A stretch of 64,000 nucleotides of DNA from an uncultured Cytophagales bacterium (GTDB lineage Bacteria > Bacteroidota > Bacteroidia > Cytophagales > Cyclobacteriaceae), in assembly GCA_963711495.1 (NCBI GenBank), contig CAVQEK010000007.1, positions 94,970 to 158,969 of the forward strand, written 5' to 3'. Shown in pieces: positions 17,506-40,292 of this stretch. Positions within the stretch are counted from its first letter, which is position 1. Every line of letters begins with the position of its first letter. Position numbers and translations under genes: made by a program. The notes below the pieces were generated by a model that did not search any database, had not been told where the DNA came from, and saw only the letters and a list, made by a program, of their open reading frames with translations.

Positions 17506-17554
17506 GATTAATATGTGTAACTAATAATATTTAGAAATGATCGCATCAGAATGA

Positions 17555-20500
17555 CTAAAACTGAATATGAGTACCGACGGTATATAAGGCTACCTGAGGA
17601 TAATAGTTTTGCCAACCAGATGTTGCTTCAGGATCCAAATGCCATTCGTTTAATTTGGAGATAGTAAACAGATTAGTTCCTGACACGTAAATGCTGATCA
17701 GACTCAAATCCAACTTCTTTATTAGCGAAGCCGGTAGTTGATATGCCAACTCGATATTTTTTAAACGAACGTAAGAAGCATCCAGCATTCTCTGATCACT
17801 CATAACCCGATTACGCAAATCCTGTTTGACAACTCTTGGAAAACGGGCATCCGTATGCTCCGGCGTCCAGTAATTGTTTGCATATATGCTTGGAACAAAA
17901 CCCTCATAAATGCCCATTTCGCTTAAAGCGCGTGCCAATACCATACTTACATCCGCGGCACCCTGAATTGCCAGATTTAGTGTAAATCCTTTGTAGGACA
18001 AATTAAAGACTCCACCAAAATTGTATTTGGGGAAAGAGTTCCCCAGATAAGTCATATCGTTAGGGTCCACAATGCCGTCACCGTTCAAATCCAGGTATTT
18101 CACGTCGCCTGCTACTGAAGGTCGCATGAATTCAGGATAATCTGCTGCTTCTTGATCCGTATTGAAAAATCCATCTGTTTTATAGCCCCAAACGGAATTA
18201 ATTGGTTGGCCTTCTGCTGTTATATAGCGGGGGTCAAAATCTGAACCACCATAATAATAAGGCCCCGTGCCGGCCAGATCGATAACTTTATTATCATTGA
18301 TATGAAAATTGAGATTGGCATCCAGGACGAACGGGCCAAAATTATTCTTTCCATTGAAATTGAATTCCCAACCCGTATTATCTACTACTCCTGCGTTTTG
18401 GGGAGCAGCACTTAAACCTATCGTAGCTGGGACAGGTAAATCAAGTAATATCCCCTTTGTTCTCTTCTTATAATAATCAACAGATAAGGAAATCCTGTTG
18501 TTTAAGAACTCAGCATCGAAACCTACATCAGTTTGGGTGGTCGTTTCCCAAGTAAGGTCAGAATTTACCATTTGTTGTTGAACATACCCATCCACGGGAT
18601 TACCGCTGAAGGAGTAGGTAACGTGGTTCAAAGTGGGATAAAAGGTATACAGGCCCACTGCCTGGTTACCGGTCGATCCTAGTGATCCCCGTATCTTGAA
18701 TTCATTGATATAGTCTCGTAATCCACTCCAAAATGGTTCCTGTGATATTCGCCATGCTGCTGAAAAAGAAGGAAAAAAAGCGTAACGGTTTGTACTCGTA
18801 AACTTCGAAGATCCGTCATAACGGGCATTCGCTTCAAAGAGATATTTGTCCTTAAATGAATAATTAAATCTCCCGAAATAGGAACGTAGCGTCCATAGGT
18901 AATTACTGCCACTATTGTCCTTAGTATCATCATTAGCACCCTGGCTCAGAACCTTAATGTCGTTATTATAAAAATCCTGGCGATAGGCACTTATCGAATT
19001 GCCATTATTTTGTTCCTGGGAATAGCCAGCCAAAATCTTAATCGAATGATCCCCTTTATCGAAAGAATAAGTCAACAGATCATTAAGTGTATAGAATCGA
19101 TCGGTAGTTCTTTGTTCATTTAATTGATTGTGGAGAAAGGTCTTTTTAACTTTAGTGGAGTCTCTTGTTTCCCATGTTTTATTATGATCCGTGAGGTATC
19201 CATCATTGATGTGTCCGTCAAATTGCATGGTAAAAGTCAATCCCTTCAGGATATTCCAGTCTCCTTTTAGGTTGACATTAAAGTAATCATAGTTTGATTG
19301 GGAAATTCCCGCTTCTTCAGCCAGGAGTAGCGGATTATTGCCCTGAGTACCTCCTCCATAATCCCCGTTCGGATATTTGGGGACATCCCATATCGCATTT
19401 TGCATCATTTGCCGAAATACCTCGTTTATACCCTTACCGGCACCACTAGGCTCGATCCCTTTTTTATTTTGAAAATAGAGATCTGCTGATAACTTTATTT
19501 TGGGGATGATGGTAAAATCAGTGTTTACCCTTCCTTCAACCAGTTTTGAATTCGTATTGGCAATGACCCCGTCCTGGTCCTGATAGCGGAGAGACATCCG
19601 ACCCTTAAAATTCTCAGTTCCTCCATTTACGGATAACGAATGATATTCCTGAGGAGCCGTGTGGAACATGACGTTATACCAGTTATAAGGTAAAGGATAA
19701 TGCAAGGGATCATTAACACTGCCTTGTACATATTCCTGTATGTACGCATCACTGTATTTGACCGGATTGCCGGCATTTATATAAGCCTCATTTTGAAGAT
19801 TGAAATAATCTTCCATACCTATCGGTTCAGGGTTCATAATAGATTTTTGAATAGCATGGGAGAAATCATATGAAACAGAGATTTTTCCCTCAGCTCCTCG
19901 TTTGGTGGTGATAAGTATTACCCCGTTTGTAGCCCTTGAGCCATAAATTGCCGTAGAACTGGCATCCTTTAAAACAGAAATCGAAGCGATATCATTCGGA
20001 TTGATACTCTGGAACGGTTGCACTGCACCGTCAACCAGGACCAATGGACCGTTATCACCAACGGTGCTTGTGGTTAATGCACCAAGGCCATCTGGGCTAA
20101 AAGGAACATTTACACCCCGTATTACAATATTTGTGTTCGGTGAGCCTGGACTTCCACCTTTATCAAGAATTGTTACCCCTGGTAGTTTGCCTTGTAAAGC
20201 TTGTTGGATACTGTTAACCGGTCTTCTTTCCAATTCGCTTCCCGATATCTCATCGACTGCACTGGTAAGACTTACTTTTTTTTGCGTGCCGTATCCTACC
20301 ACCACAATTTCCTGAAGTGATTTGACGTCAGGGTTCAAGGTCACATCAATGACTGACTTTTCTCCGACCGTTATTTCCAGTCTTTGATAGCCTACAGAAC
20401 TAAAAACCAATACAGATTCCCCATTCGGTACATCAATTTTATAATTTCCGTTCAAATCGGTTACCGTGCCAAGAGTAGTCCCTTGAATAGATACATTCAC

Positions 20501-20701
20501 TCCGGGTATACCTTGGTAATCTTCTGAGGATACAACTTTTCCTGTAATCGTTATGGATTGTTGCTCATCCAAACGTTCACTTTTCTGATTTACATAACTG
20601 TTAGTTGCCCAAAGTGGTCCAACCAGAAAACACATCATCCAAAGTCCCGTCAGCAAATATTTTAATATGCTGAGAACATGTCCTAGTAGTTTTAATACCA
20701 T
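17555..20701 (-). CDS. SusC/RagA-type TonB-dependent outer-membrane transporter (PUL-1)
   Basis: 1048-aa ORF. It has a carboxypeptidase-regulatory-like N-domain (ITGKVVSSEDYQGIPGVNVSIQGTTLGTVTDLNGNYKI), a plug (EIVVVGYGTQKKVSLTSAV) and a C-terminal aromatic residue (HIQF). Confidence 0.9.
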   Translation of the reverse strand: MVLKLLGHVLSILKYLLTGLWMMCFLVGPLWATNSYVNQKSERLDEQQSITITGKVVSSEDYQGIPGVNVSIQGTTLGTVTDLNGNYKIDVPNGESVLVFSSVGYQRLEITVGEKSVIDVTLNPDVKSLQEIVVVGYGTQKKVSLTSAVDEISGSELERRPVNSIQQALQGKLPGVTILDKGGSPGSPNTNIVIRGVNVPFSPDGLGALTTSTVGDNGPLVLVDGAVQPFQSINPNDIASISVLKDASSTAIYGSRATNGVILITTKRGAEGKISVSYDFSHAIQKSIMNPEPIGMEDYFNLQNEAYINAGNPVKYSDAYIQEYVQGSVNDPLHYPLPYNWYNVMFHTAPQEYHSLSVNGGTENFKGRMSLRYQDQDGVIANTNSKLVEGRVNTDFTIIPKIKLSADLYFQNKKGIEPSGAGKGINEVFRQMMQNAIWDVPKYPNGDYGGGTQGNNPLLLAEEAGISQSNYDYFNVNLKGDWNILKGLTFTMQFDGHINDGYLTDHNKTWETRDSTKVKKTFLHNQLNEQRTTDRFYTLNDLLTYSFDKGDHSIKILAGYSQEQNNGNSISAYRQDFYNNDIKVLSQGANDDTKDNSGSNYLWTLRSYFGRFNYSFKDKYLFEANARYDGSSKFTSTNRYAFFPSFSAAWRISQEPFWSGLRDYINEFKIRGSLGSTGNQAVGLYTFYPTLNHVTYSFSGNPVDGYVQQQMVNSDLTWETTTQTDVGFDAEFLNNRISLSVDYYKKRTKGILLDLPVPATIGLSAAPQNAGVVDNTGWEFNFNGKNNFGPFVLDANLNFHINDNKVIDLAGTGPYYYGGSDFDPRYITAEGQPINSVWGYKTDGFFNTDQEAADYPEFMRPSVAGDVKYLDLNGDGIVDPNDMTYLGNSFPKYNFGGVFNLSYKGFTLNLAIQGAADVSMVLARALSEMGIYEGFVPSIYANNYWTPEHTDARFPRVVKQDLRNRVMSDQRMLDASYVRLKNIELAYQLPASLIKKLDLSLISIYVSGTNLFTISKLNEWHLDPEATSGWQNYYPQVALYTVGTHIQF

Positions 20702-23684: not shown

Positions 23685-25928
23685 TCAATGCACCAGAAAG
23701 GTCCCCGGACATCTACTGTATCCCTTGTTTCCGTAAATATCCGATGATTCGATTCCCAGTCTATACAGTTCAAATTTTTCAGCAGGAACTTTTCCGCCGA
23801 ACCTGTTATCGCCAGCCACACGGTCACCGTCTATTCCGACGTCGTTCAGTTCTATATTCAGAAAATTTTCAGGACCATTGTCTGAGATCAACCGGGCCTT
23901 TACCCATCTGACCTTTCCCCCATCATAAACCCAGGCGTGCACAATATTATCACCCGTTATCTCAGCCTTTCGCAACATAGGTGCAATGGTATCCTTACCA
24001 GATACCTTTATTCGTATTTTCCCATTTTTTATAATATGATAGGGATAATCCGGCAACCAGTAAGTGGCAAAAAATTCTACCATCTGATTGTCAGGGGTTT
24101 CCGAAGAGATCAAAGGGATGGAGTATTTTTCCGAGCCACCCACGTGATCATAGCTGCCCCAGTTATCCGATTCCCTGAACCTAAGTCCCAAAGGGTTAAT
24201 ATACTGGTCATTTGTGAACAGTTCCGTTCTGTGGTACAATCCGCTGTCCCCGACCAGGAGTACTATGGATTCTCCGGGATTGGCAATGCCGTCTCCGTTT
24301 CCGTTACCCAAAAAAACCGAAGCCGTATCATCACCGGCCACGGCGACCGTAAAATAATTGCCATCGGCCACAACAACATCTTTAAACTCCCCGACTTCAG
24401 GTCGTACAGGTATGGTAAAATGCTGAATCCATGCGTTTCCAAGGTCATCCTTGATCATCAGTTTGAATTTTTCAATTTCCACACTGTCACTTTTAATAAT
24501 GAAGGAGAATGGGCGATCGGACTCCGCAAGTCCGTTGACATCCACCTTACCATATTCGGCTACGGCATTCATAATTTCCGCATCACCATTCTCATCGGAT
24601 AGTACCGCTTTTACATTTCCGGACTTTCCGGTTCCCTTATTCAACAAACTGACCTTGAGGTTCACCACCTTTCCGGGCACTACCCAATTTATATTGGTAA
24701 CTTTCTGCGCCGTCATACACAATTTTGGTCCGCTATCTGTTGTACCGATGCCAATTTCATGGAGCGCCCCATCCGTTATAATTTCAATTCTTCCTTCTTC
24801 ATCACTGTTTACCACGTATTGGGCGTGGCTTCCTGCCGTCAGGTTTACATCATTTATGACGTAAGTATGGTGCTTTTCATAGTTCGGTGCAGTGGTTACA
24901 GTAACTTTCACAAAAGGCATAACAGAACCGTTGGGAAGAAATTCCTTTACCGAGCATCTGAACCCGCGATCGTTTACATTTTCCAAAAGGGTAAAACCGG
25001 GATAATGACGGTCAGAACTTACTTCGTAACCCCAAACTTTAAATTCGGGATAAACATCAATATGACTCCATGTTTCCGGTTTGGGAAGTGGGTTTTTAAA
25101 CGTGTCGAGTATAAAATCAAACATCTCGCCAAGACCACAGGTCGTATGGTCTGCATGATAGATCTTGTATTCATAATTATCCAACACCCTGGCCCATATC
25201 CTATTCATATCTTGATGATAGGCACGGATAAAATCCTGATCACCATAGTTTAAACGTAACTTGACTCCCGCGTAGTTTTTATACATATCCAGATGCCGGT
25301 ATTCCACGGGAAAATCATAAGGGCCCACTACAAATTCCGTTGAGCCACAAAAGTTCCCTGCCGCACAAACCATCTCGGGATATTTGCCTGCAATCCAAAA
25401 AGTCATAAACCCACCCATCGACAAGCCGGATATTGCCCGGTGATCCCTGTCGGGAATGGTTCGGTAGTTGGCATCGATATACTTTACAATTTCCGGGAAG
25501 TAGAGCGGAAACTGGCGGTATGTTTCCACGGGTCCGATATTGTAGGGTCTGAGGTAATAAGGATCGCCAGGATTGCGGTTATAGCCATCCGGCTTGACCA
25601 CGATCACGTCGTGCCGAGCGACATAGTTGGCAATGTTGTCGCCATTGTTATTGCCTCCCTGGTCGATATCAGGCGTATTGATACTTCCGAAATAGCGTTG
25701 AGACCAGCCATGGTAAAAATAAATGACAGGGTAATACCTGTCGGTGTGCTGAAAATACCCCGGAGGAAGGAAGATGCGGTAATTTCTCATTTCACCGAAC
25801 ACTTCACTGTAATGTTGCGAATCGATGATGGTTACTCCTCCGTTATTGGACACCACTTCAAAAAAAGTAAATACCAACAACAAGCCTGGTAAGCATTTTA
25901 TCATCAATTTTCCGGTTTTCCGTTTCAT
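23685..25928 (-). CDS. Secreted alpha/beta-hydrolase esterase (CE1 / esterase-D-like) with a roughly 450-aa beta-rich C-terminal extension
   Basis: 747-aa ORF. It has YRIFLPPGYFQHTDRYYPVIYFYHGW, the nucleophile elbow AISGLSMGGFMTF, and HADHT near the end of the catalytic domain. It is a paralogue of 32560-34425 (shared KNPLPKPETWSHIDVYPEFKVWGYEV vs KDPLPEPKRWDHADLYPNFDVWGYEV, and NGNGDGIANPGESIVLLV vs GNGNNIAEPGEWIMVYEV). Confidence 0.7.
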   Translation of the reverse strand: MKRKTGKLMIKCLPGLLLVFTFFEVVSNNGGVTIIDSQHYSEVFGEMRNYRIFLPPGYFQHTDRYYPVIYFYHGWSQRYFGSINTPDIDQGGNNNGDNIANYVARHDVIVVKPDGYNRNPGDPYYLRPYNIGPVETYRQFPLYFPEIVKYIDANYRTIPDRDHRAISGLSMGGFMTFWIAGKYPEMVCAAGNFCGSTEFVVGPYDFPVEYRHLDMYKNYAGVKLRLNYGDQDFIRAYHQDMNRIWARVLDNYEYKIYHADHTTCGLGEMFDFILDTFKNPLPKPETWSHIDVYPEFKVWGYEVSSDRHYPGFTLLENVNDRGFRCSVKEFLPNGSVMPFVKVTVTTAPNYEKHHTYVINDVNLTAGSHAQYVVNSDEEGRIEIITDGALHEIGIGTTDSGPKLCMTAQKVTNINWVVPGKVVNLKVSLLNKGTGKSGNVKAVLSDENGDAEIMNAVAEYGKVDVNGLAESDRPFSFIIKSDSVEIEKFKLMIKDDLGNAWIQHFTIPVRPEVGEFKDVVVADGNYFTVAVAGDDTASVFLGNGNGDGIANPGESIVLLVGDSGLYHRTELFTNDQYINPLGLRFRESDNWGSYDHVGGSEKYSIPLISSETPDNQMVEFFATYWLPDYPYHIIKNGKIRIKVSGKDTIAPMLRKAEITGDNIVHAWVYDGGKVRWVKARLISDNGPENFLNIELNDVGIDGDRVAGDNRFGGKVPAEKFELYRLGIESSDIYGNKGYSRCPGTFLVH

Positions 25929-25957: not shown

Positions 25958-27262
25958 CTATTGACTATTTGTTATTATTTTTTGACGAGAATTCACCCTC
26001 ATGATATAAGCCTGCCTGCTACCCGTTCGGGTTGAATTGAATCCGATTATATCTCCATTCTGACTCCACCGGCAGTGAAGGTCGCAGCGCCAGCCACCGG
26101 AAAATTCCTCTGGTTCGAAAAAACGCCCCAGAGACAACACGGCTTGAGTTTTCATATCCATCATGAAGATCTTCTGTTCATTCATGCCCTCACTCGGATA
26201 AGTATCGGTTATCATCCATTTCCCGTCTGGTGAAAAAGTTCCGTGAGCGTCGAAGTCAAGCAAGCCTTTGCCAAGTCGTGTATAATCTTCCTTCCCGACC
26301 GTAAACAAAACATGCGCGTATTGTTTTGCGTCGTATTTCGCGGTGATCATTAGCCGGTCGTCGTCAAGCCAATCAAAATGTGATCCTTCCCAGTCGTCGG
26401 GGAAACATCGCCGAAGCCCGGAGCCATCGACATTGACGGTGAAGCAGGTCGTATTTCTTCGCGGTGTCGCTCGGGCCAGCCAGAATATCTTCGTGTCTTC
26501 ACGGCTAAATAATGTATGGTTGAAATATTCAATGCCTTCGGGGGGAACTTCCGGCACCAATTCCCTAACCTGGGCCATCGATACGATCAGCTTTGCGCTT
26601 CCGGTTTCAAGATCAACCACAAATATTCCGTCGTTTTCAGGAAACTGCACATCTGCCAACGGATTCTGGCCTTCGCCTCCGTAACCGTAATCCGGGCGTG
26701 TTATGCGGATCCTGCCGTAATTGATACTTATGGCTATCTTGCCGTCGTGGGATACTGCGCTTATAGGGTACGGAATGATTCTCTTTTCTTCTCCGGTATG
26801 CACATTAAGAATGACCGATACAAACCGGCCATTTCGCAGATCATTGTAGATTATGAGGGAATCCGGAGAAGTCCCCAGCCAGTGCACCATGCAGCCCTGT
26901 TGGAAATTCCATGCCCTGGTCCTGGCCACCGGCTTGAATTTAAGGGTCTCAAGGTCAACGATGCCCAGTGTCACCGTATCGTTTTCCGTTGGTATTCTGT
27001 ATTTCACGTCGGTTTCCAGCACTGTTGCGTACCTTTCGGAAGCACTGAAAGAATTGATGCCGTAATAGCTCGCAAAAAAATGCTCCTTCGTGTTATCCGT
27101 TATTTGTAGCGGTGAAGAAATTTGCGGGAAAACGGCCCCGTTATCGTCTTTGCTTTTTCTGCAACCGCCCAAAATCAGGATGGCAAAAGTCGCCATAAAG
27201 AAAATTATCGATCTGTACATAATCATAATGACTTGGAATTTAATCAATTTATCTTGATTCAT
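25958..27262 (-). CDS. Lipoprotein with a TolB/oligogalacturonate-lyase-like beta-propeller (function uncertain)
   Basis: 434-aa ORF with a lipobox (ILILGGC). The repetitive beta-strand pattern has SPDGKW-type blades. The C-terminal WRCDLHCRWSQNGDIIGFNSTRTGSRQAYIM resembles the end of Ogl-type (PL22) propellers. The family call is by eye only. Confidence 0.4.
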   Translation of the reverse strand: MNQDKLIKFQVIMIMYRSIIFFMATFAILILGGCRKSKDDNGAVFPQISSPLQITDNTKEHFFASYYGINSFSASERYATVLETDVKYRIPTENDTVTLGIVDLETLKFKPVARTRAWNFQQGCMVHWLGTSPDSLIIYNDLRNGRFVSVILNVHTGEEKRIIPYPISAVSHDGKIAISINYGRIRITRPDYGYGGEGQNPLADVQFPENDGIFVVDLETGSAKLIVSMAQVRELVPEVPPEGIEYFNHTLFSREDTKIFWLARATPRRNTTCFTVNVDGSGLRRCFPDDWEGSHFDWLDDDRLMITAKYDAKQYAHVLFTVGKEDYTRLGKGLLDFDAHGTFSPDGKWMITDTYPSEGMNEQKIFMMDMKTQAVLSLGRFFEPEEFSGGWRCDLHCRWSQNGDIIGFNSTRTGSRQAYIMRVNSRQKIITNSQ

Positions 27263-27415
27263 TTAGAGTTCACAAACGAAGAATAGATCATCGTGATCAA
27301 CTGTATAATGTTCGTCAACAGGTTTTAACTATTTGCGCATTCAAAGTCTCACCATCCTGACCTGTTCAGTTTCCTGACGGTACAATTTCTCTTTTTTTGT
27401 CAAGTTTTCCTTCAA

Positions 27416-27856
27416 TTAATGCTTTTCCCTAACCACCGTGAAGTGAGCAGTAGTTACCAAAGATCTGAAATCCATATCCGCCGTCTTTTTAATGATGAAC
27501 TTGTCTTTCGTCCACTTTTTGTCAAAATTAGGGTTGCAGGGATAGCGGGTCCAGTGAATACTGTCGTCAGAGGTAGCGTAGCCCAGGTATTTCGGGTCAG
27601 TATCTTTGTCCAAATAGCCCGAGTACCACATTTTATATTTTCCATCTCCTTGCAGGATGTAGCCCCGTTCCCGATTATTCCGGTCCCAGGTATCGGTATC
27701 CGTTCCGCTGAAAATTGGATTGCGTTCGTAAGGGGTAAAAGAGACCATTTCCGGGGGAAATGCCTCAGAAGAACCGGATCCGGTCTTCTTTTTTGAACCA
27801 CAGGCGATCAGCAAAAAAACCAAGGCCTATACGATAAACTGCCCTATGACTTTCAT
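27416..27856 (-). pseudogene. N-terminal fragment of a five-bladed beta-propeller glycosidase (GH43/GH130-like); an amber stop interrupts the signal peptide and the gene is truncated
   Basis: Reading from the ATG at 27856 gives MKVIGQFIV*ALVFLLIACGSKKK, with the TAG at 27827-27829. The 135-aa ORF contains NPIFSG..TWD...GYILQGDGKYKMWYSGY....LGYATSDDSIHWTRYPCNP, which is one blade pair only, then ends. Only about 150 bp remain before the next gene. Confidence 0.45.
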
Positions 27857-27980: not shown

Positions 27981-29906
27981 TTATTTAAACGGCGTGGCCA
28001 GGTATCCCTCGATATCCGTCCAGTGCCGCAGCATGATCTTCCTTTTGGACTTAAGCTGCCCGATTAGGTCCGGACCGAGCAAAAATGTATCCTCATACTT
28101 CGGGTCTTTGGCATGGGCAATGAATTCCATCCCGCCATCTTCCAGCACATCGATCAGATCCTGGGTATTGTCCAACTCATCCCGCATCACAGCATTAAAT
28201 GCCTGCAAGTCGGGATCACCCTCCCAGGTGGGGCTTTTATCAGGCCGGTGAGGGGGCATGCTGAGTTTGTCGGCATTGCGGTCCCGAATCGCTTGTGCCT
28301 CGGCAAAATTTCCGATGGTCCGGAAAATACTGCTGTGGATCTTCAGGGCTGTCGCCAGATGTTGAAGAAAAGCCTTTTCCGGGGCATTCTCACTGGCTTT
28401 TTCTATCAAATCGATCGTCCGGTTGATCTTTGAGGTGTAATTACCTGCTGCTCCGGAAGCGAGGGTCCGGTGGGCGCCATGAATGTCGGTGAAATCCATC
28501 CGCGCCTCCTTTTCGGACGGATTGAATACATATGGCAGAAAATAAGCTTCTTCCTCCGGGGACAACCTGTCCGGGGCAATAACAAGCGGCCTGGTGATCT
28601 GCCGTTCGGACACGCCCCAATAGATCCCGGATGCGCCACCCAACGCTGTGCTTCTGTACTGATCGGCCTCCTCCAGGATCTGAAAAGCCTTAAACAACGG
28701 ATCGGCCCCTTCTTCGCCCCCCCAATCATGGCAAAGTTGTTTCAATTGCTCCAATTCTGCGATCACTCCTTCATCACCAGGATGTTTCAAATTCGCCACC
28801 AACAGGTCGAGATATTTGTCTGTCGTCGCAAGCGGCTCATATCCCCTGTCATAGGAAGCCCTGAAATTGATGAAGATCGTATTGGCCGGTTCATCTTTGA
28901 TGGAATTGACATTCCTGATGATCTCCAACGGGTCGAACAATCCGCGCACAGGATAGTTACCCAAGATCATGCTGTTTATTCCCTGTACAATGTCCGACCG
29001 GTGACCCTGGAAATAACATCCTTCCGGAAGATGCTGATAAATATCCTTCATTTCTTCGTCGGAAAACATAGATCCTACCAGGTAAATAGAAATATCCCGG
29101 CCGGCTTCCGCAGCGCCTGCTTTAAAAGTATTCATCAGCGTTTCGACCCGCTCTCCCATGCTCTTGTTTTTGCAATGTGCCGGGCCATTGGGGCCGACAT
29201 ACTGCCAGTCGGACCAGCAGATCCCTGAACCGGCGTCATTAGTCTTAAAAAAGAAGGTATGTATCTCCGGCACATTCTTCAGCAATTCGGCTACCATGTT
29301 ACGGTACATTTCCTGGGTTTCTTTCACACTGACGCAGGGCGCAAATGCCGGATGATTCCCGCGCCTGGGGTGATCAACCCTCGGTCCGCGCAGATGGGGA
29401 TATTTTTCAAAGAATGCGTCGGGCAGAAAATTGGGTTCATAACTCCAAAAGGCGGCGTCCAGTCCGTATTCGCGCAAGATCTTTGCTTTCGCCAGCAGCA
29501 GTTCGCGGTTTTTCTTCACAAAATCAGCCGGAATGAACGGGGCAATTTTAGGATCAGGGAAAAACTTATAGGGCGTAGGATTATAACTCGCGTACTCATA
29601 CCAGGAATTTCTCCCCTCGGGGATCTCATAAAAACCTTTTTCCGCCAAAGTACTGATGTTGATCTCGACCCGGCCGAATGGTTTCAGCCGGGAGGCCTGC
29701 TTGGCCAACGCCCGGAATTCATCCAGGTCTTTGATTGGCGCATGGATCACAAATACTTTCTCTTTGCTTTTCCCCGGGTCGTGAACCGCTTTTTCTTTTC
29801 CTTCATTGTTCTCATCTGCCTTCCCGATATTGATTGATGTCAATAAAAGCAAGCATGCCAATAAGAAACGCATTTTCCTCACATCATTTCTAATCATATC
29901 CTCCAA
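27981..29906 (-). CDS. Secreted protein of unassigned family (family-A copy 1; TIM-barrel-like N-half, helical C-half)
   Basis: 641-aa ORF. The probable start is MRFLLACLLLL at 29873. It shows strong, colinear similarity to 54981-56972 (for example YPHLRGPRVDHPRRGNHPAFAPCVSVKETQEMY...EIHTFFFKTNDAGSGICWSDWQYVGPNGPAHCKN). I recognise no catalytic signature. Confidence 0.7.
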   Translation of the reverse strand: MEDMIRNDVRKMRFLLACLLLLTSINIGKADENNEGKEKAVHDPGKSKEKVFVIHAPIKDLDEFRALAKQASRLKPFGRVEINISTLAEKGFYEIPEGRNSWYEYASYNPTPYKFFPDPKIAPFIPADFVKKNRELLLAKAKILREYGLDAAFWSYEPNFLPDAFFEKYPHLRGPRVDHPRRGNHPAFAPCVSVKETQEMYRNMVAELLKNVPEIHTFFFKTNDAGSGICWSDWQYVGPNGPAHCKNKSMGERVETLMNTFKAGAAEAGRDISIYLVGSMFSDEEMKDIYQHLPEGCYFQGHRSDIVQGINSMILGNYPVRGLFDPLEIIRNVNSIKDEPANTIFINFRASYDRGYEPLATTDKYLDLLVANLKHPGDEGVIAELEQLKQLCHDWGGEEGADPLFKAFQILEEADQYRSTALGGASGIYWGVSERQITRPLVIAPDRLSPEEEAYFLPYVFNPSEKEARMDFTDIHGAHRTLASGAAGNYTSKINRTIDLIEKASENAPEKAFLQHLATALKIHSSIFRTIGNFAEAQAIRDRNADKLSMPPHRPDKSPTWEGDPDLQAFNAVMRDELDNTQDLIDVLEDGGMEFIAHAKDPKYEDTFLLGPDLIGQLKSKRKIMLRHWTDIEGYLATPFK

Positions 29907-29933: not shown

Positions 29934-32573
29934 TTATTTCCCGTGTCCCTTTACATGGATTACCGCCGGTACACTTTCATTCCACCGGTTGTCGACGGCA
30001 ACTACTTTATAAAACAGGTCGCTTTGCCTTTCTGGCGGTACATCATTCACCGATGTTTTCATGACCGATCTGATCAACGTTTCGTTGCCACATTCGTCGT
30101 TGGCAGTCTTTCCGCAATAAATGGAATAATGATGCAGATCAGGGGCCGGTGAAGGTGTCCAGGAAAGGGTAATCCGGTCCCCGTTGACCGTGGCGTGAAG
30201 ACCTTTTACCTCCCCGGGAGCAATGCCGTCGCCGGGATACGGTGCCTCGGGTGTAAATTCATCCGTCGTAAATAGCAGCATATCCAATTTCAAATCGTCA
30301 TCTCCGGAAGACAATTCAATAGTTTTCTGTTGGCCATCTGGATTAAAAACACCCAGGCTCATCCATTTCCAGTCCTGCGATTGGACCGGAAACGCGTTGG
30401 CTCCAACAGACCAGGAACCAGTACCTTTGACACTACCCCATATAAAATAATGTCCCGCAGGCATCCCATCCAAGGGGATGTTGACCACTCCTTTCGACGC
30501 CGTTTCTGCAGTTGATTCCGCGTTGATGCGGACGCACTGAAATCCATTGGCGTACCCGTCAAAGAACCGTCTTGCCGGCGGGGTCAATGCCATGTCCTCG
30601 GCCTCGAAATAAAAGGACCTTGCACCTTCGGTCGAGACTTCACATGAAAAATCGCTTTCCAATCCGGAATGCTCCACCGACGCAATGGCGTAATACTTCC
30701 ACCGGCCATCAATCTTTGCCCGAATTTCCGTTAAAGGTTTTTCATTAAGCCGGACAAAGTCCCGGCCGCTGCTGTCTGAACCATAGATGTTGTAACCCGC
30801 AATCTCCCGGTGTCGCTTGGGCTGATCCCAGGTGATCAGTGCTCCATCGAGCGTTACATTGACCGGTGCGTCGGGTCGGCGGGTGTATACCATCTGGAGT
30901 TCTGTGCTGCCGATGGCATTTTCGTTATAAATCAGCTTGGTGTAATCCGGACTGGGGCGGCTGTAGGTGGTCGACGTCCAGGAAAATTTGGTAAAATACC
31001 GGGCCACCCGCATCACTGCCCCCGGATCTTTCGAAGAGATCATCAGATGTTGATGATCGACATCCACCCGGGTCCCGTTGGTGAAGACATACTGGTTGTC
31101 GGCGGTGAGCCTGCCGTAATCGGTGACAATGTCATTCTTCCAATTTGCCCAGACCGAAATTTTATCGCCCGGCGTAAATGTATCACCGATGTCTCCCGGG
31201 ACAAAAACATTCAGGTGCCCCCCGAAGTTGGCGACCATTCCGTTTGGTCCATGACTGGCGTGCCCGGCGCTGAATCCCGGCACAAGCCCTTTTTCTCCGA
31301 TGTCCAGGTTCATCCACCACACCTCATAGGTGTAACAATTGGCCCAGCGAATAATGTTGTCGTTGCCGCCCACACTGGCGTCTTTCAAGCGGGTAGGCAA
31401 ATTAATATACCGAGCCTTCTTGTTTTTAACATCGATGATGTACAGGTGCGGCGTTTCACGGAACGCCACCACAATGTTACCCAGCGGCGTAAACCGTTTA
31501 AATTCGATGTATGAGCCCACTTCAGGAACCGAAAATGCAGCAATAGGTGTTTCTTCTCCCGTGATCCTGTTCCACGAGAACACCGAAAACCGAAGCCCGT
31601 TCCTTTTCATCAGGTATAAGACATCGGGGTCATTTTCGCTCCACATCCTCCAACCGGCATCTTTCGGTCCGGCAATCACCCTTCCCTCTCCGGGTATGCA
31701 GATGGGAATACCGCCAATTTTCCGGCTACTTTCAAATTTTATGGCTGCGCCGTCTGCCGACCAGATGCCCCCTTCACCAAAATAATCATCACCCGGAGTT
31801 GCCGTGAGACGGGTGGTGATCCCACCGGTGGCATCATCCCTGAAAATCGCCATCTCTTCGCCATCTATAACCGGAACCAGGATATTTTCCCGCTTCTTCA
31901 AAGCTTCCAGCCCATGATATGGCCTGGGTCCCAGGTGCTCTTCCCGGATGGTAAGCCCGCTGCCGATCAATTTTTCCTGTTCCTCCTTGCTGAGTTCAGA
32001 AGCAAACTTGAGATCGTCCAGGGTCAGGTGGGTATGGTTGTCCTGAAGATCGATCCCAAAATTAACCCGCCGTTTTCCCCTGATCCGGTCGTCATCGTAA
32101 TCTTTTAAGTCAATGACCGTAAGCCCGGTGGTGTATCCCAGCTTCGTCGTGAACCCGTTGATATCAAAAAAACTGCTGGAACCTTTTTCCCGCACATCCA
32201 ACACCACATAGTGATACCAGTCTAGGTCCACCACGCCATAATCCTTCCTCAGGTTGGTGGACGTGTCCTCTGTGGATTCAATCCAGGGCCATTTTTCTGC
32301 GGCTTCTTCCAATGTTCTGAATTTATGATGGATGATCAGCACCCCATCCTTCGATTCCATCTTCAACGCCGGAAGAATCGTGTCTCCCCTCGGGTTGATT
32401 TCCCGCCATCCCTCCACTGTGGTAAAGTCATCGTGCAAACCAATCTTTTTACCGTCAGACTGACAGGAAATGCATAACACGATCAGACACACCAAAAAAA
32501 TTGCCGGGGTTAGCCGCATTGTCGATGTGGTTGATTTCAGCAAGCCCATATCACCACTATCAATTATCCTCAT
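29934..32573 (-). CDS. Multidomain secreted lipoprotein: N-terminal jelly-roll-like domain, Ogl/PL22-like beta-propeller, Fn3, CBM-like domain, Fn3
   Basis: 879-aa ORF. The probable start is MRLTPAIFLVCLIVLCISC at 32519. The propeller entry FRDDATGGITTRLTATPGDD...SADGAAIKFES and exit YSRPSPDYTKLIYNENAIGSTELQMVY resemble oligogalacturonate lyase. Fn3-like segments are present (ITWDQPKRHREIAGYNIYG; ITLSWTPSPAPDLHHYSIYCG), and a CBM-like block reads FYFEAEDMALTPP...LLFTTD. Confidence 0.6.
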   Translation of the reverse strand: MRIIDSGDMGLLKSTTSTMRLTPAIFLVCLIVLCISCQSDGKKIGLHDDFTTVEGWREINPRGDTILPALKMESKDGVLIIHHKFRTLEEAAEKWPWIESTEDTSTNLRKDYGVVDLDWYHYVVLDVREKGSSSFFDINGFTTKLGYTTGLTVIDLKDYDDDRIRGKRRVNFGIDLQDNHTHLTLDDLKFASELSKEEQEKLIGSGLTIREEHLGPRPYHGLEALKKRENILVPVIDGEEMAIFRDDATGGITTRLTATPGDDYFGEGGIWSADGAAIKFESSRKIGGIPICIPGEGRVIAGPKDAGWRMWSENDPDVLYLMKRNGLRFSVFSWNRITGEETPIAAFSVPEVGSYIEFKRFTPLGNIVVAFRETPHLYIIDVKNKKARYINLPTRLKDASVGGNDNIIRWANCYTYEVWWMNLDIGEKGLVPGFSAGHASHGPNGMVANFGGHLNVFVPGDIGDTFTPGDKISVWANWKNDIVTDYGRLTADNQYVFTNGTRVDVDHQHLMISSKDPGAVMRVARYFTKFSWTSTTYSRPSPDYTKLIYNENAIGSTELQMVYTRRPDAPVNVTLDGALITWDQPKRHREIAGYNIYGSDSSGRDFVRLNEKPLTEIRAKIDGRWKYYAIASVEHSGLESDFSCEVSTEGARSFYFEAEDMALTPPARRFFDGYANGFQCVRINAESTAETASKGVVNIPLDGMPAGHYFIWGSVKGTGSWSVGANAFPVQSQDWKWMSLGVFNPDGQQKTIELSSGDDDLKLDMLLFTTDEFTPEAPYPGDGIAPGEVKGLHATVNGDRITLSWTPSPAPDLHHYSIYCGKTANDECGNETLIRSVMKTSVNDVPPERQSDLFYKVVAVDNRWNESVPAVIHVKGHGK

Positions 32574-34425
32574 CTTTTCCCACGGTGATGGTAAAGGTCC
32601 CCCAGGTCACATTTCTTTTGATCGCCTTCCACTCCTTCACTTCATAATTGGCCAAAAACCTGATCTTGTGTCCGATAGGACAGTCCTTGGAAATATGCAC
32701 GATGGAAGAAACCGCATAGCCGTCACCCCACTTGTCGGGTTGCAGGTCCACATGGATGCGCTCGGAATCGATATATGGATCGTCGTAATAAAGCCGCGTG
32801 CGGTGACTTACCTCATAGACCATGATCCACTCTCCAGGCTCAGCAATATTATTCCCATTGCCACTCCCGAAGATCTCGCTGTCGCCATCATCAATTCCGA
32901 TGTGCGTAAATTGAGGAACGTCATAAAATACCGGGGCATCGAACTCATCATTCCAGGTATTCTGTTTTTTGTCCGTCACGGCAACCTGAAACCTGACCCT
33001 GAACGGCGAACCATCCTTGGTAGGCTCATTGGACGCGGTCACTTCAATATCAGTCGCTACCCAGCTATCTCCGCACGAAGGGATATCATCGATGGTGATG
33101 GTAGGATTTGCAATGGATACACCGTCAGCCAGGGTGGTCAAAGTCACCTTCAACCCTTTGGCCACTGCACCGCCGCGATTCAGGAGATGGAGCTTGAGGT
33201 TACATTCCTTTTTATGATCCAGGAAGGTCCCTTCTCCATTTACCTGATATCCAATAACCACGATCTCCGCCGGATCGTTTTTTCTAAAAATACCGATCTG
33301 GTGCGGCTCATGATCGACATCAAAATTTATCTTCCCTTCCGCATCACTCTTTACGGTTGACACTTCCTTTTTATTGAGTGATTCGTTGTAATCCAATAGA
33401 CTGTATGAAGCATTAGGGTGGTAAATTGCCGGGGTTTTAACGTTGATCTTCACGCCGGGGATGGTGCGGCCATGGGGCTCCCATTTTCTTGTGGTGATCC
33501 CCATGCCCCCTTTTGTCACGCCGTGCATGTCAATAAAGCCGGGTTCATCGAGGTTGCTTCGCACTTCATAGCCCCAGACATCAAAATTGGGATAAAGATC
33601 GGCATGATCCCACCGTTTCGGCTCCGGCAGTGGATCTTTAAACGCCCGGATCACAAAGTTGAATGCATCGGTAAGCTCTTCGGCAGTCAAATGATGCCCG
33701 CCCTCATAAATTTTATATTCAAAAGACAGATCACCTTCATGCAAAGCTCCCTGGTACACTTCGTTGTTCAGGTAAACCAGTTCGCCGTTGGTGCTGTTGT
33801 CAAACCTAAGCTTTACGCCGTGAAGATTCTTGAAGAAATAGCGAACACTATACAGTGTATGGTTATCAGGATACCCGATGAAAAATTCGGGAGATCCCTT
33901 AGAACTTACCGCTGCGCCGACTAACTGCGGATATTTCCCGGCCAGGTAAAAAGACATGATCCCTCCCATGCTGTGTCCGATAATTGCCCGGTGCGCCCGG
34001 TCGTTCAATGTCCGGTAGGTAGAGTCAATATGCGCTACAAATTCAAGAAAGTAATCCTTGAACTGCACCTGATAGTTGATGTTGGAATGAAAACCAACGT
34101 TATAGGGCCGAACATCGGACTCGACGGAACGGCCGTTCCAGGCCACCATGATCACCGAATTTTCCTTTGCCAACCGGGCCATCGTATCGGATAAGGGATT
34201 TTGATGGGTTCCTTTGTTGCCATGGAAAAAATAGATCACCGGATATCTTTTATTGGACGTTTCATAATCATCCGGCAAAAATATTCGATAGGGCTTTTCC
34301 CTGTTGAACACCTTGCTAAAATGAACTTTGTCTTGCTGTGCCAAAGATCCGGATGAAAGCCCTACCGTCACCATTAATACCAATGCGGCCACTTTCATCA
34401 GGTTGTTTACCATCAATTTTTTCAT
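32560..34425 (-). CDS. Secreted alpha/beta-hydrolase esterase (CE1 / esterase-D-like) with a beta-rich C-terminal extension; first gene of the operon
   Basis: 621-aa ORF with a signal peptide. It has YRIFLPDDYETSNKRYPVIYFFHGN, the nucleophile elbow AIIGHSMGGIMSF and EGGHH. It is a paralogue of 23685-25928. Confidence 0.7.
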   Translation of the reverse strand: MKKLMVNNLMKVAALVLMVTVGLSSGSLAQQDKVHFSKVFNREKPYRIFLPDDYETSNKRYPVIYFFHGNKGTHQNPLSDTMARLAKENSVIMVAWNGRSVESDVRPYNVGFHSNINYQVQFKDYFLEFVAHIDSTYRTLNDRAHRAIIGHSMGGIMSFYLAGKYPQLVGAAVSSKGSPEFFIGYPDNHTLYSVRYFFKNLHGVKLRFDNSTNGELVYLNNEVYQGALHEGDLSFEYKIYEGGHHLTAEELTDAFNFVIRAFKDPLPEPKRWDHADLYPNFDVWGYEVRSNLDEPGFIDMHGVTKGGMGITTRKWEPHGRTIPGVKINVKTPAIYHPNASYSLLDYNESLNKKEVSTVKSDAEGKINFDVDHEPHQIGIFRKNDPAEIVVIGYQVNGEGTFLDHKKECNLKLHLLNRGGAVAKGLKVTLTTLADGVSIANPTITIDDIPSCGDSWVATDIEVTASNEPTKDGSPFRVRFQVAVTDKKQNTWNDEFDAPVFYDVPQFTHIGIDDGDSEIFGSGNGNNIAEPGEWIMVYEVSHRTRLYYDDPYIDSERIHVDLQPDKWGDGYAVSSIVHISKDCPIGHKIRFLANYEVKEWKAIKRNVTWGTFTITVGKDEDN

Positions 34426-35045: not shown

Positions 35046-36038
35046 ATGATGTTTTCATTCATTACAAAAACCCCCAGAAGCATCCGTTCGATCACCCTTG
35101 GACTTATGAGGCTTCTCCTTTTTGGCCTCCTGCTCCCGGTTGCTTGTAGCCCTCAGAAGAAATCACCTTTTACTTTTAAAAGAAATGATCAAGGGATCGA
35201 AGTGAAGGAAAACGGGAAGCCGGTATTCTTTTATCAGAAAGAACCAAAATCGCTTGATGGAAAATATGTATGCGATAATTACCTGCATCCGCTGTACAGT
35301 TTGAGCGGAGACACTCTCACGGAAGAGTTTCCCGCCGACCATCCCTACCACCGGGGTATTTTCTGGGCCTGGCACCAGGTCCATATCGACAATAAAAGTG
35401 TCGGTGATGGCTGGGTTATGGAAAACATTGAACAAAAGGTTGTGGATGTGCAAACGGTCATTAATGATCACGTCGGCCAACTCGAAATAAATGCGCTGTG
35501 GAAATCCCCACTGTACGAAAACAAGAAACCGTTTATTGCCGAACACACCACCATATCGCTCCATCCTCTTGAAGACAGCGTACGCAAAATCGATTTTGCC
35601 ATCCGCCTGAAGGCGCTCGTTCCTCACGTTGAAATCGGCGGCGCCGACGACGAGAAAGGTTATGGAGGATTGTGTGCCAGGATCAGGCTGCCGGAGGATA
35701 TAATTTTTACATCTGCAAATGGAATGGTTACTCCGCAGACATATCAGGTGAAAGCCGGACCATGGATGGATTTTTCCGCTTCGTATGGAAAAAACAATGA
35801 AATGGAAGGGATTGCCATACTTTGTCACCCAAAAACTCCAAATTATCCAGCACCATGGATCCTGCGCGCTGAAAAAAGCATGCAGAATATCGTGTTTCCG
35901 GGAAGGGACCGGGTCACGTTGCCAACGGAAGGGTTCATCATTTTGTACTACAGGTTGATTGTCCACAGCGGAAATGCTGATGACCTCAATCTATCCAAAC
36001 TGCAATTAGAATATGCAGAAAAGAAAATAACAAAGTGA
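35046..36038 (+). CDS. PmoA-like / DUF6807-family protein (secreted)
   Basis: 330-aa ORF with a signal/lipobox (LLLPVACS). The family hallmark NYLHPLYSLSGDTLTEEFPADHPYHRGIFWAWHQV is followed by LCHPKTPNYPAPW. Confidence 0.6.
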   Translation: MMFSFITKTPRSIRSITLGLMRLLLFGLLLPVACSPQKKSPFTFKRNDQGIEVKENGKPVFFYQKEPKSLDGKYVCDNYLHPLYSLSGDTLTEEFPADHPYHRGIFWAWHQVHIDNKSVGDGWVMENIEQKVVDVQTVINDHVGQLEINALWKSPLYENKKPFIAEHTTISLHPLEDSVRKIDFAIRLKALVPHVEIGGADDEKGYGGLCARIRLPEDIIFTSANGMVTPQTYQVKAGPWMDFSASYGKNNEMEGIAILCHPKTPNYPAPWILRAEKSMQNIVFPGRDRVTLPTEGFIILYYRLIVHSGNADDLNLSKLQLEYAEKKITK

Positions 36039-36369
36039 TGATCTTTAAAAGATTTGGATACCCGCTCAGAACGATATGGCTCTTTGTTGCCAGAGGAATT
36101 TGCATTTTGATTCGGTCCATCAATAACTCTTGTTAGGATTAATGTCATTTAATGGCACCACCATCCAGTACTCTAATGCCACTTTCAAACACCTGATAAA
36201 GCTGTTTAGCAGATGTCCGACTTTTAGCCCAAAAATGCGGTAGAAAGACCTGTCACAAAACCGCCAATAATAATCACATTCAAATCCGTTTTTTCCTGAG
36301 CCTGCTTTCTTTTATTTAGACATTTACCACCATAAAATGGTCAAATATTCATTTGCTCACATTCACCTT

Positions 36370-37564
36370 TTATTGAATGTAACTCTTAGTATTTCCCCTA
36401 TATTGATACAGCTTTACTCCTTCAACAACCCTGGATATTGCTCCACTTACAGAAGGTGAATCTGGGTTGAGACCCAAGGAAATCGATTTGAAAAACCCCA
36501 GTAGCTGGGCGGGCAAGACGCTGACGACCGACAATAGGTCTTCAGATATTCTGCCGTCTTCCGGACCTGCTAATTCTATCACGGTATCGAAGCCGTTTAA
36601 CTGTTCAGTTCGGTCAACCAACGCAACCCTGTAAAGCCCCCTTTCTCCATTGTCAATGTCTTCTACCAGATCAAACTCGTATTGTCGAACATATTCATCG
36701 TCGGAAAAAAGGAAAAATATCAACGTACTGCGATCGATGACAGCTTTGGGACCATGCCTGAACCCAAGATAGGAATCATGCTTGCAAATGATTCTGCCAT
36801 CAGTAAGTTCCTGCAACTTTAAATGTGACTCCCTTGCTGTACCAAGCATGGGGCCGGAACCGAGAAATATAGCTCTTGAAAATTCCAAGCTGTGCGATGC
36901 TAAATATTCGATCCCGGTAATCGTTGAGAATTTTCTCTCCATAGGAAGCAAGAAGATCAATTTGAGACTTAAGTATGTCAATATCATCAAGCCTCGATAT
37001 AAGGTATGCAGCAAGCAACATGGAAGTATAACTTCCGGTCATGGCCAATCCTTTGTCGTTCGATTCAGCCGGCAGGACAATTATCATGTCCTTTCCGGGG
37101 CGAACCTCTCCAACTATGTCGCCTGACTCATTACACGTAATTATCAGATGAAAAACACCCTGGCAGATTTCATTGGCCAATTTAATGGTAGCTACACTTT
37201 CCGGGCTATTTCCAGATCTTGCAAAGGAGATCATCAAGGTTGGCCTATCCTTATTGAGATAATTTTCCGGATGAGTAACGAGATTGGTTGTCGCTACTGC
37301 CCTGGACCGAGCCTTCGTATACCTTTGAAAAGGTCCCTCCAAAACCTCACCGATAAATGCTGAAGATCCTGCACCTGTCAATATGACCTCCAATCCCTGA
37401 TTTGAATATACTGCCCTCAAATACGCACTTATCTCCTTTCGTTTATCTTTAATCAGGGCAAAGATCTTTTTCCAAAGCTCCGGTTGCCCATCAATTTCCC
37501 TAGCAGTATTAAGCCCACCTAATTTCTCTAGTTCAGAGATTTTAAAGCCCAAAAACTCTTCCAT
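36370..37564 (-). pseudogene. agaS: AgaS-like double-SIS ketose/aldose isomerase-deaminase, split by a 1-nt frameshift
   Basis: Two overlapping ORFs in different frames (36800-37564 and 36370-37014) together align colinearly with E. coli AgaS. N-part: ILTGAGSSAFIGE...ISFARSGNSPESVATIKLAN...ITCNESG...PAESNDKGLAMTGSYTSM. C-part: AIFLGSGPMLGTARESHLKLQELT...GFRHGPKAV...SGAISRVVEGV. The frame switch lies between about 36880 and 36905 (...DRIFSIAQL / EFSRAIFLGSG). Confidence 0.75.
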
Positions 37565-40284: not shown

Positions 40285-40292
40285 GATCTGAT

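Follow-up and report, generated by a model that had tools for sequence, protein, structure and literature searches.

A widespread unannotated protein family with a predicted glycosidase-like fold, encoded twice in a Cytophagales contig

Two copies of an unannotated protein family

The window analysed here, a 64,000-nucleotide stretch of contig CAVQEK010000007.1 from an uncultured Cytophagales bacterium (assembly GCA_963711495.1), contains two intact minus-strand open reading frames (ORFs) that encode members of the same unannotated protein family. The first, FAM-A (27981-29906), encodes 641 amino acids when read from a TTG codon, and its likely true start is Met4 at 29897 (638 amino acids), from which the public gene call of a 100% identical protein (P0001, 638 amino acids) also begins. 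The second, FAM-B (54981-56972), encodes 663 amino acids from a TTG codon, with Met14 at 56933 as the likely true start (650 amino acids), and is called in this way in near-identical contigs. BLASTP aligns the two products colinearly over 599 residues, with 52% identity, 67% positives and 7 gap positions (E = 0), and both contain the motifs GPRVDHPRR, FFFKTNDAGSG.CWSDW.Y.GPNGP.HCKN, AYFLPY.FN and IRDRNA.KL. The original prediction, made from the DNA sequence without database searches, had described these ORFs as colinear, diverged paralogues sharing such blocks, each apparently under selection and each with a signal peptide, and our comparison bears this out. Read from the sequence, both N-termini consist of a charged stretch followed by a hydrophobic stretch, as is typical of Sec signal peptides (FAM-A, MRFLLACLLLLTSINIGKA; FAM-B, KIIIKSFLIGFWAILLAMPSKG). 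Orthologues in other genera are 70-75% identical to FAM-A and approximately 50% identical to FAM-B in the case of the FAM-A type, and 61-68% identical to FAM-B in the case of the FAM-B type. The 70-75% and 61-68% identities within each type lie well above the 52% found between FAM-A and FAM-B, and both paralogue lineages are old and maintained. All 15 polar residues that are conserved family-wide are kept in the two window copies, and many other genomes also carry at least two copies of the family.

Scans of FAM-A and FAM-B against Pfam-A and NCBIfam returned no match even at E ≤ 1, and a single-sequence (phmmer) search together with two profile searches of PDB chain sequences at E ≤ 10 identified no related chain; the matches from these PDB searches, a HIT protein, AVR-Pik and a designed helical protein, were set aside as noise. 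A profile match with an E-value below 1e-10 to a characterised family, which the original prediction had named as evidence against it, was absent from the Pfam, NCBIfam and PDB sequence searches. Our literature searches found no description of the family. A paper on Lac161, a 'novel beta-galactosidase' that we encountered via PF14100, concerns a beta-propeller protein and was discarded. The earlier verdict that the proteins are unassignable therefore stands with respect to Pfam, NCBIfam and PDB sequences, but not at the superfamily level, where the family can be placed next to DUF4838 and glycoside hydrolase (GH) family GH20, as described below.

A word-indexed homologue search recovered at least 528 close homologues of FAM-A. 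Among the 120 best, on which our identity and length figures are based, the sequences are 56-75% identical to FAM-A (with P0001 as the one 100% match), nearly all are approximately 630 amino acids long, none carries a precomputed Pfam domain, and nearly every one that has been named goes under 'hypothetical protein'. When 1.84 billion cluster representatives (50% identity) were searched exhaustively with a profile, 643 clusters were returned at E ≤ 1e-3, including 227 at E ≤ 1e-30, and the match to full-length members covers nearly the whole protein of approximately 600 amino acids. When GTDB was searched using one genome per species, relatives were found to be encoded in 184 stretches. The best 80 of these, from which we took the taxonomy, derive almost entirely from metagenome-assembled genomes (MAGs), and all are labelled Bacteroidota except for two MAGs labelled Chlorobiota. 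Represented among them are Prolixibacteraceae/Mariniphaga/Draconibacterium/Maribellus, Chitinophagaceae, Cyclobacteriaceae, Rikenellaceae, Saprospiraceae and Pedobacter. More distant members, at 23-30% identity, were found outside these groups, examples being a Halanaerobiaceae MAG and a Planctomycete-like contig. The family is real and conserved.

To describe variation within the family, 234 full-length members were re-aligned to the family hidden Markov model (HMM) and filtered to less than 60% mutual identity, leaving a non-redundant set of 110. The N-terminal extension that precedes the first barrel strand is missing in 67 of these, such that approximately 60% are without a signal peptide and presumably cytoplasmic, as judged from their sequences. 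The window copies appear to belong to an exported Bacteroidota clade; the term 'secreted' used in the original prediction is appropriate for this clade, but not for the wider family. One presumed cytoplasmic member (P0127, at 10001-11830 of locus L084) is inserted between pheS and pheT in a row of ribosomal-protein and tRNA-synthetase genes, which is an odd place for a carbohydrate enzyme.

Predicted fold and remote relationship to DUF4838

An AlphaFold2 model of FAM-A was built from a 34-sequence alignment, with a mean predicted local distance difference test (pLDDT) of 83.6 and a predicted template modelling score (pTM) of 0.85. In this model, residues ~48-358 (28833-29765, minus strand), which hold the motifs RGPRVDHPRR and FFFKTNDAGSGICW, are predicted to form a (beta/alpha) barrel, an assignment drawn from the model, Foldseek and hhalign. 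The strands at 51-55, 79-83, 150-156, 215-221, 273-277, 307-311 and 343-347 alternate with helices, and the low-confidence part of the barrel comprises only the loop at 224-230 together with 237-240. The remainder of the protein, residues ~359-641 (27984-28832, minus strand), is predicted to be an all-helical C-terminal domain, with residues 359-634 entirely helical in the model. Such a helical C-terminal half following a barrel had been anticipated from the sequence.

A Foldseek search with the model against the PDB (to April 2026) gave 68 matches at E ≤ 0.001, and all of the 50 best are glycoside hydrolases. The top match (E 1.7e-12, ~690 aligned columns) is the GH138 enzyme BT0997/BP0997 (PDB 6hzg, 6hzf and 6hze), an alpha-galacturonidase acting on chain A of rhamnogalacturonan II. 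GH138 is the best structural match to the whole model and, like the family, combines a barrel with a helical region and belongs to loci for complex, esterified, uronic-acid-containing glycans. The two differ in that the template modelling score (TM-score) of 0.45-0.48 lies below 0.5, indicating substantial differences in domain packing, and the identity is 11-12%. No sequence similarity to GH138 was detected at E ≤ 10 by phmmer and the two profile searches of PDB chains, a set that should include 6hzg, 6hzf and 6hze (their presence was not checked).

Next in the Foldseek results are the GH20 enzymes GcnA of Streptococcus gordonii (2epm) and GH20C of Streptococcus pneumoniae (5a6j), at E 6e-9 to 1e-6, together with the GH20 modules of StrH. 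GcnA and GH20C share with the family a two-domain layout, a length of approximately 600 amino acids and the position of the catalytic acid (putative in the family) after strand 4, and this resemblance is at the level of the fold. The GH20 motif H-x-G-G-D-E is absent from both window copies, they have no GH20 or GH20b Pfam match, and hhalign gave no signal to the GH20 protein encoded in the window; the N-terminal GH20b domain of GH20 enzymes is also missing from the family. Partial matches were obtained to GH89 alpha-N-acetylglucosaminidase (E 1e-5) and to the alpha-glucuronidases GH115 (E 6e-5) and GH67, which together span E 1e-5 to 2e-4 with TM-scores of ~0.3-0.43. These enzymes also have a TIM barrel and helical bundle, and the removal of uronic acid side chains by GH115 and GH67 suits the context inferred for the family, but they differ in having extra N- and C-terminal domains and in showing no sequence similarity to it. 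Weaker matches were to GH36, GH31, GH27 and GH13 barrels, and no close solved relative of FAM-A is among the matches listed. The barrel and helical bundle layout is common to the first four groups of matches (GH138, GH20 of the GcnA/GH20C type, the StrH GH20 modules and GH89). The structural comparison is thus in line with the barrel of DUF4838/GH20 type suggested in the original prediction, the best structural neighbours being GH138, GH20 enzymes with a helical C-terminal domain, GH89 and GH115.

At the sequence level, the sole recurrent match is to DUF4838 (PF16126). When 79 diverse members were scanned singly against Pfam at E ≤ 1, this domain was matched by eight (best E 0.0019); none of the 79 reached its gathering score of 26.6 bits, and the window copies gave no match at E ≤ 1. 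The window itself encodes a bona fide DUF4838 protein of the GH163/GH185 type (10023-11939), approximately 16 kb from FAM-A. An initial hhalign comparison of a shallow family profile with a single DUF4838 sequence was suggestive (E 0.037), and deeper profiles on both sides were needed. Using a DUF4838 profile built from 39 homologues of the window protein and a diverse family profile, hhalign returned a probability of 83.4% and an E-value of 8.5e-6 over 127 columns spanning family residues 140-278, which correspond to strands 3 to 5. As controls, the family profile compared with the window GH20 and GH27 proteins gave E-values of 0.19-0.2 and 0.15, respectively, which we regard as noise. The alignment pairs N223-D224 of the family (in FFFKTND) with the Asp that is invariant within the DUF4838 motif FDFWPPDG and is D323 in the window DUF4838 protein. 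The original prediction had likened the strand ending in HTFFFKTND to the DUF4838/GH20 strand that ends in a conserved acidic residue, and the profile alignment agrees with this, as does the presence of D224 in 109 of 110 members.

DUF4838 is the catalytic domain of CAZy families GH163 and GH185, both of which are distant relatives of GH20 (PMC10570127). The GH163 enzyme BT1035 is an endo-beta-N-acetylglucosaminidase acting on complex N-glycans, and the GH185 enzyme Sp_0475 is a 6-sulfo-beta-GlcNAcase of the exo type, in which D309 is the proposed acid/base, its substitution by alanine lowering kcat 7800-fold, and in which the C-terminal Arg633 binds the 6-sulfate of the substrate (PMC10570127). 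The spacing between a conserved preceding His and this Asp is 82 residues in Sp_0475 (His227-D309) and 80 in the window DUF4838 protein (invariant His243 and Asp323), and from this spacing D224 may correspond, via D323, to the catalytic D309 of Sp_0475. The family and DUF4838 have in common a TIM barrel followed by C-terminal helices, the aligned Asp after strand 4, and the coexistence of cytoplasmic and secreted members; the C-terminal Arg with which GH185 binds an anionic group (PMC10570127) also resembles the invariant Arg and Lys residues in the helical domain of the family. They differ in that the His of the DUF4838 motif GGHG, the WPPDG motif and the Tyr and Gln of GH185 are not recognisably conserved in the family, which instead has motifs of its own (RGPRVDHPRR, TNDxGxGxCW, YxGxNGPxxC, RWLTRPLV and RxExDNT) as well as a co-varying cysteine triad. 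The stretch matched by hhalign does not convincingly reach the GH185 active-site residues Q174, H227, Y436 and R633. Their genomic contexts also differ, that of the family consisting of esterase, beta-helix and uronate-type genes. The profile alignment supports a superfamily relationship between these sequences rather than membership of DUF4838.

An architecture consisting of a (beta/alpha)8 barrel plus a C-terminal helical bundle is common to GH20 (GcnA type), GH163/GH185, GH138, GH115, GH67 and GH89. We infer from the model and the profile comparisons that FAM-A and FAM-B are periplasmic or secreted enzymes with this glycoside hydrolase architecture and are remote relatives of DUF4838. Judged against Pfam 2025, NCBIfam June 2026, PDB 2026 and the literature, the family is probably a new GH family within a known structural superfamily.

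Conserved residues and the proposed activity

Fifteen polar residues are near-invariant across the family. Among the 110 non-redundant members, conservation is as follows in the barrel: E157 (E or D in 93%), R173 (97%), R176 (86%), D178 (D or E in 96%), R182 (90%), N223 (89%, 98 of 110), D224 (99%, 109 of 110), W231 (96%), Y236 (99%) and N240 (96%). In the helical domain it stands at 97% for R435, 96% for R439, 91% for R575, 96% for E577, 93% for N580 and 95% for K621. Conserved acidic residues, as the prediction of an enzyme had supposed, are present in the form of E157, D178, D224 and E577. In the model, E157 lies directly after strand 3 and N223-D224 directly after strand 4, with the remaining conserved barrel residues in the loops that follow these strands; the active sites of TIM barrels lie at positions after such strands. 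From their conservation and the DUF4838 alignment, Asn223-Asp224 (29235-29240, minus strand) form a putative catalytic pair just after barrel strand 4, and the equivalent of D224 in FAM-B is D245 (56238-56240). Because six of the near-invariant residues (R435, R439, R575, E577, N580 and K621) come from the helical domain, the model suggests that this domain closes over the active site.

Taking the model, the remote homology, the conservation pattern and the gene neighbourhoods together, we consider it fairly likely that the family consists of uncharacterised glycosidases targeting an anionic sugar, which is probably a uronic acid. The proteins would be exo-acting glycosidases with an active site on the C-terminal face of the barrel. 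Asp224, helped by the flanking Asn223, would serve as general acid or acid/base, and the partner carboxylate could be that of E157, of D178 (within the RGPRVDHPRR loop) or, on the side of the helical domain, of E577. W231 and Y236 may stack on the sugar as a platform, while a basic belt, to which the barrel loop contributes R173 and R182 and the helical domain R435, R439, R575 and K621, might bind the carboxylate or sulfate of the -1 sugar, by analogy with Arg633 of GH185. 

The same basic residues could alternatively bind phosphate or a sugar phosphate, as would be expected of a glycoside phosphorylase or of another non-hydrolytic enzyme such as a transglycosylase, epimerase or isomerase. TIM-barrel phosphorylases exist, GH112 being an example, and the five or six invariant basic residues, the absence of a signal peptide from approximately 60% of the non-redundant members, and the presence of PfkB sugar kinases and an aldolase in the gene neighbourhoods are all in keeping with such an activity. 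We nevertheless consider it quite improbable, as the window copies and the whole Bacteroidota clade appear to be exported and phosphorolysis is unusual outside the cytoplasm, and as the 50 fold matches listed and the homologous DUF4838 enzymes are hydrolases.

The original prediction had proposed a new family of either glycoside hydrolases or lyases. The first of these is a credible candidate in light of the predicted fold and the alignments; the second is not favoured by the fold, as no polysaccharide lyase family is known to have a (beta/alpha)8-plus-helical-bundle structure. A polysaccharide lyase would suit a substrate that is probably rich in uronic acids, on which such enzymes act, and no classical carboxylate pair is evident at strands 4 and 7, which would also be compatible with a non-catalytic binding or scaffold protein of the locus. 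However, the loci already contain candidate lyases or beta-helix enzymes, and 15 near-invariant polar residues across members that are only 23-30% identical indicate catalysis rather than mere binding, making either role very improbable indeed.

Three cysteines, C191 (29334-29336), C230 (29217-29219) and C245 (29172-29174), flank the low-confidence active-site loop and co-vary, with all three present in 93 of 110 members and otherwise mostly lost together. The triad is conserved in cytoplasmic and exported members alike. The 20 members without the full triad, 17 of which have none of the three cysteines, are mutually divergent and keep nearly all of the other key residues, and because of this the triad probably has a structural role next to the active-site loop, as a metal or disulfide feature, rather than being the catalytic centre. 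For the same reason we rejected a catalytic or zinc-bound nucleophile, as in the Zn-Cys3 site of GH127, as the core chemistry of the family. An iron-sulfur cluster is unlikely for the window copies, whose signal peptides read as Sec-type and not twin-arginine.

Gene neighbourhoods in related loci and in the window

We clustered the ORFs of 80 related loci, comprising 78 GTDB loci and two found by exact look-up, together with those of the window. Across these Bacteroidota loci a cassette recurs that consists of SusC/D, an esterase of approximately 620 amino acids, the family gene, a 270-amino-acid membrane protein (p270) and a beta-helix protein. Among the assemblies with the cassette are ones labelled Reichenbachiella sp. 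MALMAid0571, Chitinophaga, Niabella, Pedobacter and Flavihumibacter, mostly MAGs. The p270 gene is present in 48 of the 80 loci, almost always immediately downstream of and co-directional with the family gene. The esterase, which belongs to PF00756, occurs in 44 loci and usually adjoins the family gene, lying directly upstream on the same strand in loci of the FAM-A type and in divergent orientation in many Chitinophagaceae loci. A beta-helix protein of approximately 736 amino acids (BH736) is found in 36 loci, usually after p270, and SusC or SusD lies within 10 kb in 22-24. A module of DUF6807, GFO/IDH/MocA and DoxX is present in approximately 21 loci (e.g. L018, L022, L058 and L078), 14 of which contain DoxX itself, and the order esterase, 879-amino-acid protein, FAM-A recurs in eight.

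Many of the recurrent neighbours are of a uronate or ester type, including CE15-like glucuronoyl-esterase-type, CE2 and SGNH esterases, GH88-like proteins, heparinase II/III-like proteins and weakly PL14-like proteins. Others are weakly GH130-like proteins, BNR proteins, GH109, GH27, M14 and S15 peptidases, amidohydrolases and URO-D-like proteins. Among distant, apparently cytoplasmic members, one adjoins two GH28 genes, an SSF transporter and URO-D; another a beta-helix protein, a PL2 pectate lyase and an MFS transporter; and a third a GH88-like gene, an SDR and a LacI-type regulator, while one lies beside a GH127 gene and one has a PcRGLX-type lyase nearby. Collectively, these contexts point to an esterified, uronic-acid-containing glycan as their common denominator, in agreement with the alpha-galacturonidase family GH138 as the best fold match.

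The main alternative to a uronidase is a beta-N-acetylhexosaminidase similar to GH20 or GH185, possibly acting on a sulfated N-acetylhexosamine (HexNAc) by substrate-assisted catalysis as in GH20, GH84, GH85, GH163 and GH185; less likely candidates are a phosphorylase, a lyase and a binding protein. In such an enzyme Asn223 would act as polariser, as in GH85, and Asp224 as acid/base, Y236 would stabilise the oxazoline and the arginine belt would bind sulfate in the manner of R633 of GH185. The adjacent conserved N-D pair after strand 4 occupies the place of D-E in GH20; GH84 has a D-D pair there and GH85 uses an Asn polariser. A conserved Trp and Tyr are close by; sulfatases, GH20, the DUF4838 protein and GH109 are encoded in the window or in related loci; and many family members are cytoplasmic, as in cluster 3 of GH185. 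The sole sequence-level relative of the family, DUF4838, is moreover a domain of the HexNAc-cleaving families GH163 and GH185 (PMC10570127). On the other hand, neither the GH20 motif nor any GH20 Pfam or hhalign signal was found in the family, the genes that recur around it encode uronate-type enzymes and esterases and are not of a HexNAc-processing kind, and GH138, its closest match in fold, is an alpha-galacturonidase. On balance we judge a hexosaminidase to be unlikely and favour a glycosidase acting on a uronic acid.

Several observations weigh against this preferred reading. The link to DUF4838 is limited to 127 columns at 83% probability, no Pfam match reaches the gathering threshold, and the loop D224-C230 has a pLDDT below 50 in the model. 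The putative site was placed from predicted secondary structure and conservation. Sequence homology is to the beta-hexosaminidase-type DUF4838, yet the context and best fold match point to uronidases, such that a uronic acid is only a candidate for the sugar recognised. Given the peptidases and amidohydrolases among the neighbours, the protein family may act on a glycoconjugate and not on a pure polysaccharide, and the family may already carry a GH number in CAZy.

Under the preferred reading, removal of acyl or methyl esters would fall to the cassette esterases and cleavage of the backbone to the beta-helix enzyme, and the family protein would then release from imported oligosaccharides, in the periplasm, a terminal sugar that is anionic and most likely a uronic acid, with the two window copies as ancient paralogues probably serving two related substrates or linkages. 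We tentatively extend this, with somewhat less than even confidence, to a reading in which the family is the signature enzyme of an almost wholly unannotated four-gene cassette, made up of a PF00756-type esterase with an unannotated C-terminal half, the family protein, the Cys-His-Asp protein p270 with its anchor in the inner membrane, and a beta-helix enzyme that is unclassified. With this cassette, environmental Bacteroidota (Prolixibacteraceae, Chitinophagaceae, Cyclobacteriaceae and Saprospiraceae) would be able to degrade an esterified acidic glycan, and Cys191/Cys230/Cys245 would form a metal site of structural function, of a kind not seen among related GH families. Unannotated proteins with GH-like folds are common in polysaccharide utilization loci (PULs); this family is widespread, has a defined set of invariant residues and marks a conserved, mostly unannotated cassette. 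Should it prove to be a glycosidase, the GH20/GH163/GH185/GH138 structural group would gain a new GH family, and there would be a handle on a whole type of PUL with unannotated core genes, a type found repeatedly in several Bacteroidota families of sediments, soils and wastewater. Identification of the substrate would then provide over 600 protein clusters with a function, together with the three partner families p270, BH736 and extended esterase, and could reveal an unrecognised turnover route for esterified acidic polysaccharides. Of practical value would be new exo-glycosidases for the analysis of anionic glycans.

In the window, both family copies are co-located with SusC/SusD pairs (15919-20701 and 60623-63994) and carbohydrate-active enzymes, as is the case in PULs. 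The copy-A operon is on the minus strand and begins, in order of transcription, with a 621-amino-acid PF00756 esterase (EST620, 32560-34425; Pfam Esterase, E 4.6e-19), the conserved partner of FAM-A-type genes, followed by an unannotated 879-amino-acid protein with a weak fn3 match (29934-32573) and FAM-A. Downstream of FAM-A is a truncated GH130-like/DUF377-type remnant (~27353-27856), of which residues ~1-169 are recognisable. As the corresponding cluster (c9) normally encodes approximately 317 amino acids and often lies directly downstream of FAM-A in other genomes, the remnant is probably a pseudogene fragment. A weakly propeller-like protein of 434 amino acids (25958-27262) and a second PF00756 esterase from the same cluster as EST620 (747 amino acids, 23685-25928) complete the operon. 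A neighbouring minus-strand locus further downstream contains SusD (15919-17505) and SusC (17555-20701).

The copy-B locus, also on the minus strand, is headed by a SusC-like gene, truncated by the end of the window so that its C-terminal part remains (62327-63994), and a SusD-like gene (60623-62308). These are followed by a 745-amino-acid beta-helix-type protein with almost no Pfam signal (58250-60487), a GH27 alpha-galactosidase-type gene directly upstream of FAM-B (57035-58243; Pfam Melibiase_2, E 1e-77), FAM-B itself, p270 (54153-54965), an ORF of 178 amino acids (53586-54122) and a distal beta-helix protein of 734 amino acids (51152-53356; weak Pfam NosD and CarboxypepD_reg) from the same BH736-type cluster as the 745-amino-acid protein. 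The 178-amino-acid ORF is called as a gene in near-identical contigs (L087 and L088); none of the 80 related loci encodes a homologue of it, and it matches nothing in Pfam or NCBIfam. The esterases, propeller-like protein, GH27 and beta-helix proteins reported in the original prediction are all accounted for in these operons. The beta-helix partner and the PF00756 esterase partner are, like the family gene, each present twice in the window; the whole cassette, and not just the family gene, is duplicated and split between two loci. A transposase gene with a helix-turn-helix and an rve integrase core (49753-50961, minus strand) lies approximately 190 bp beyond the distal beta-helix gene, past the end of the copy-B locus, and may have been involved in rearranging the region.

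Neither p270, the beta-helix proteins nor the 879-amino-acid protein has a Pfam match above the gathering score (weak NosD, CarboxypepD_reg, bMG3 and fn3 matches only), and NCBIfam and PDB sequence searches gave no meaningful match to them. A search for p270 returned 439 homologues, none annotated; the 120 listed are 67-79% identical across genera (with one 100% match), making p270 more conserved than the family gene itself. It has a predicted transmembrane helix at each end and an invariant Cys134 at the N-terminus of a helix, with invariant His161 and Asp177/179 on the following strands, an arrangement resembling that of papain and transglutaminases. The model of p270 is of moderate confidence (pLDDT 68.7), and its fold search gave nothing significant (best E ~1), the best local match being the transglutaminase core of PNGase over 52 columns (root-mean-square deviation 1.5). 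A transglutaminase/PNGase-like p270 is thus only a lead from this model.

Three further blocks of genes lie outside these operons. Just downstream of the SusC/SusD pair at 15919-20701, the region 6405-15851 (minus strand) encodes two sulfatases, an FGE-sulfatase-domain protein, GH127 and the DUF4838 protein described above. In the region 35046-44066, the two halves of a DUF6807 and GFO/IDH/MocA module, which may represent an oxidative sugar-processing route, are split by a block of SIS-domain, amidohydrolase_2, unannotated 351-amino-acid, epimerase-like and Nramp-like proteins; the SIS-domain/amidohydrolase_2 block also recurs in other genomes. The region 74-6121 (minus strand), which is unrelated to the family, encodes a DeoR regulator, a ureide-permease/sugar-transport-like protein, an ADP-ribosylglycohydrolase-family protein and a PfkB kinase together. 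The window as a whole encodes three or four PfkB kinases, an unusual concentration.

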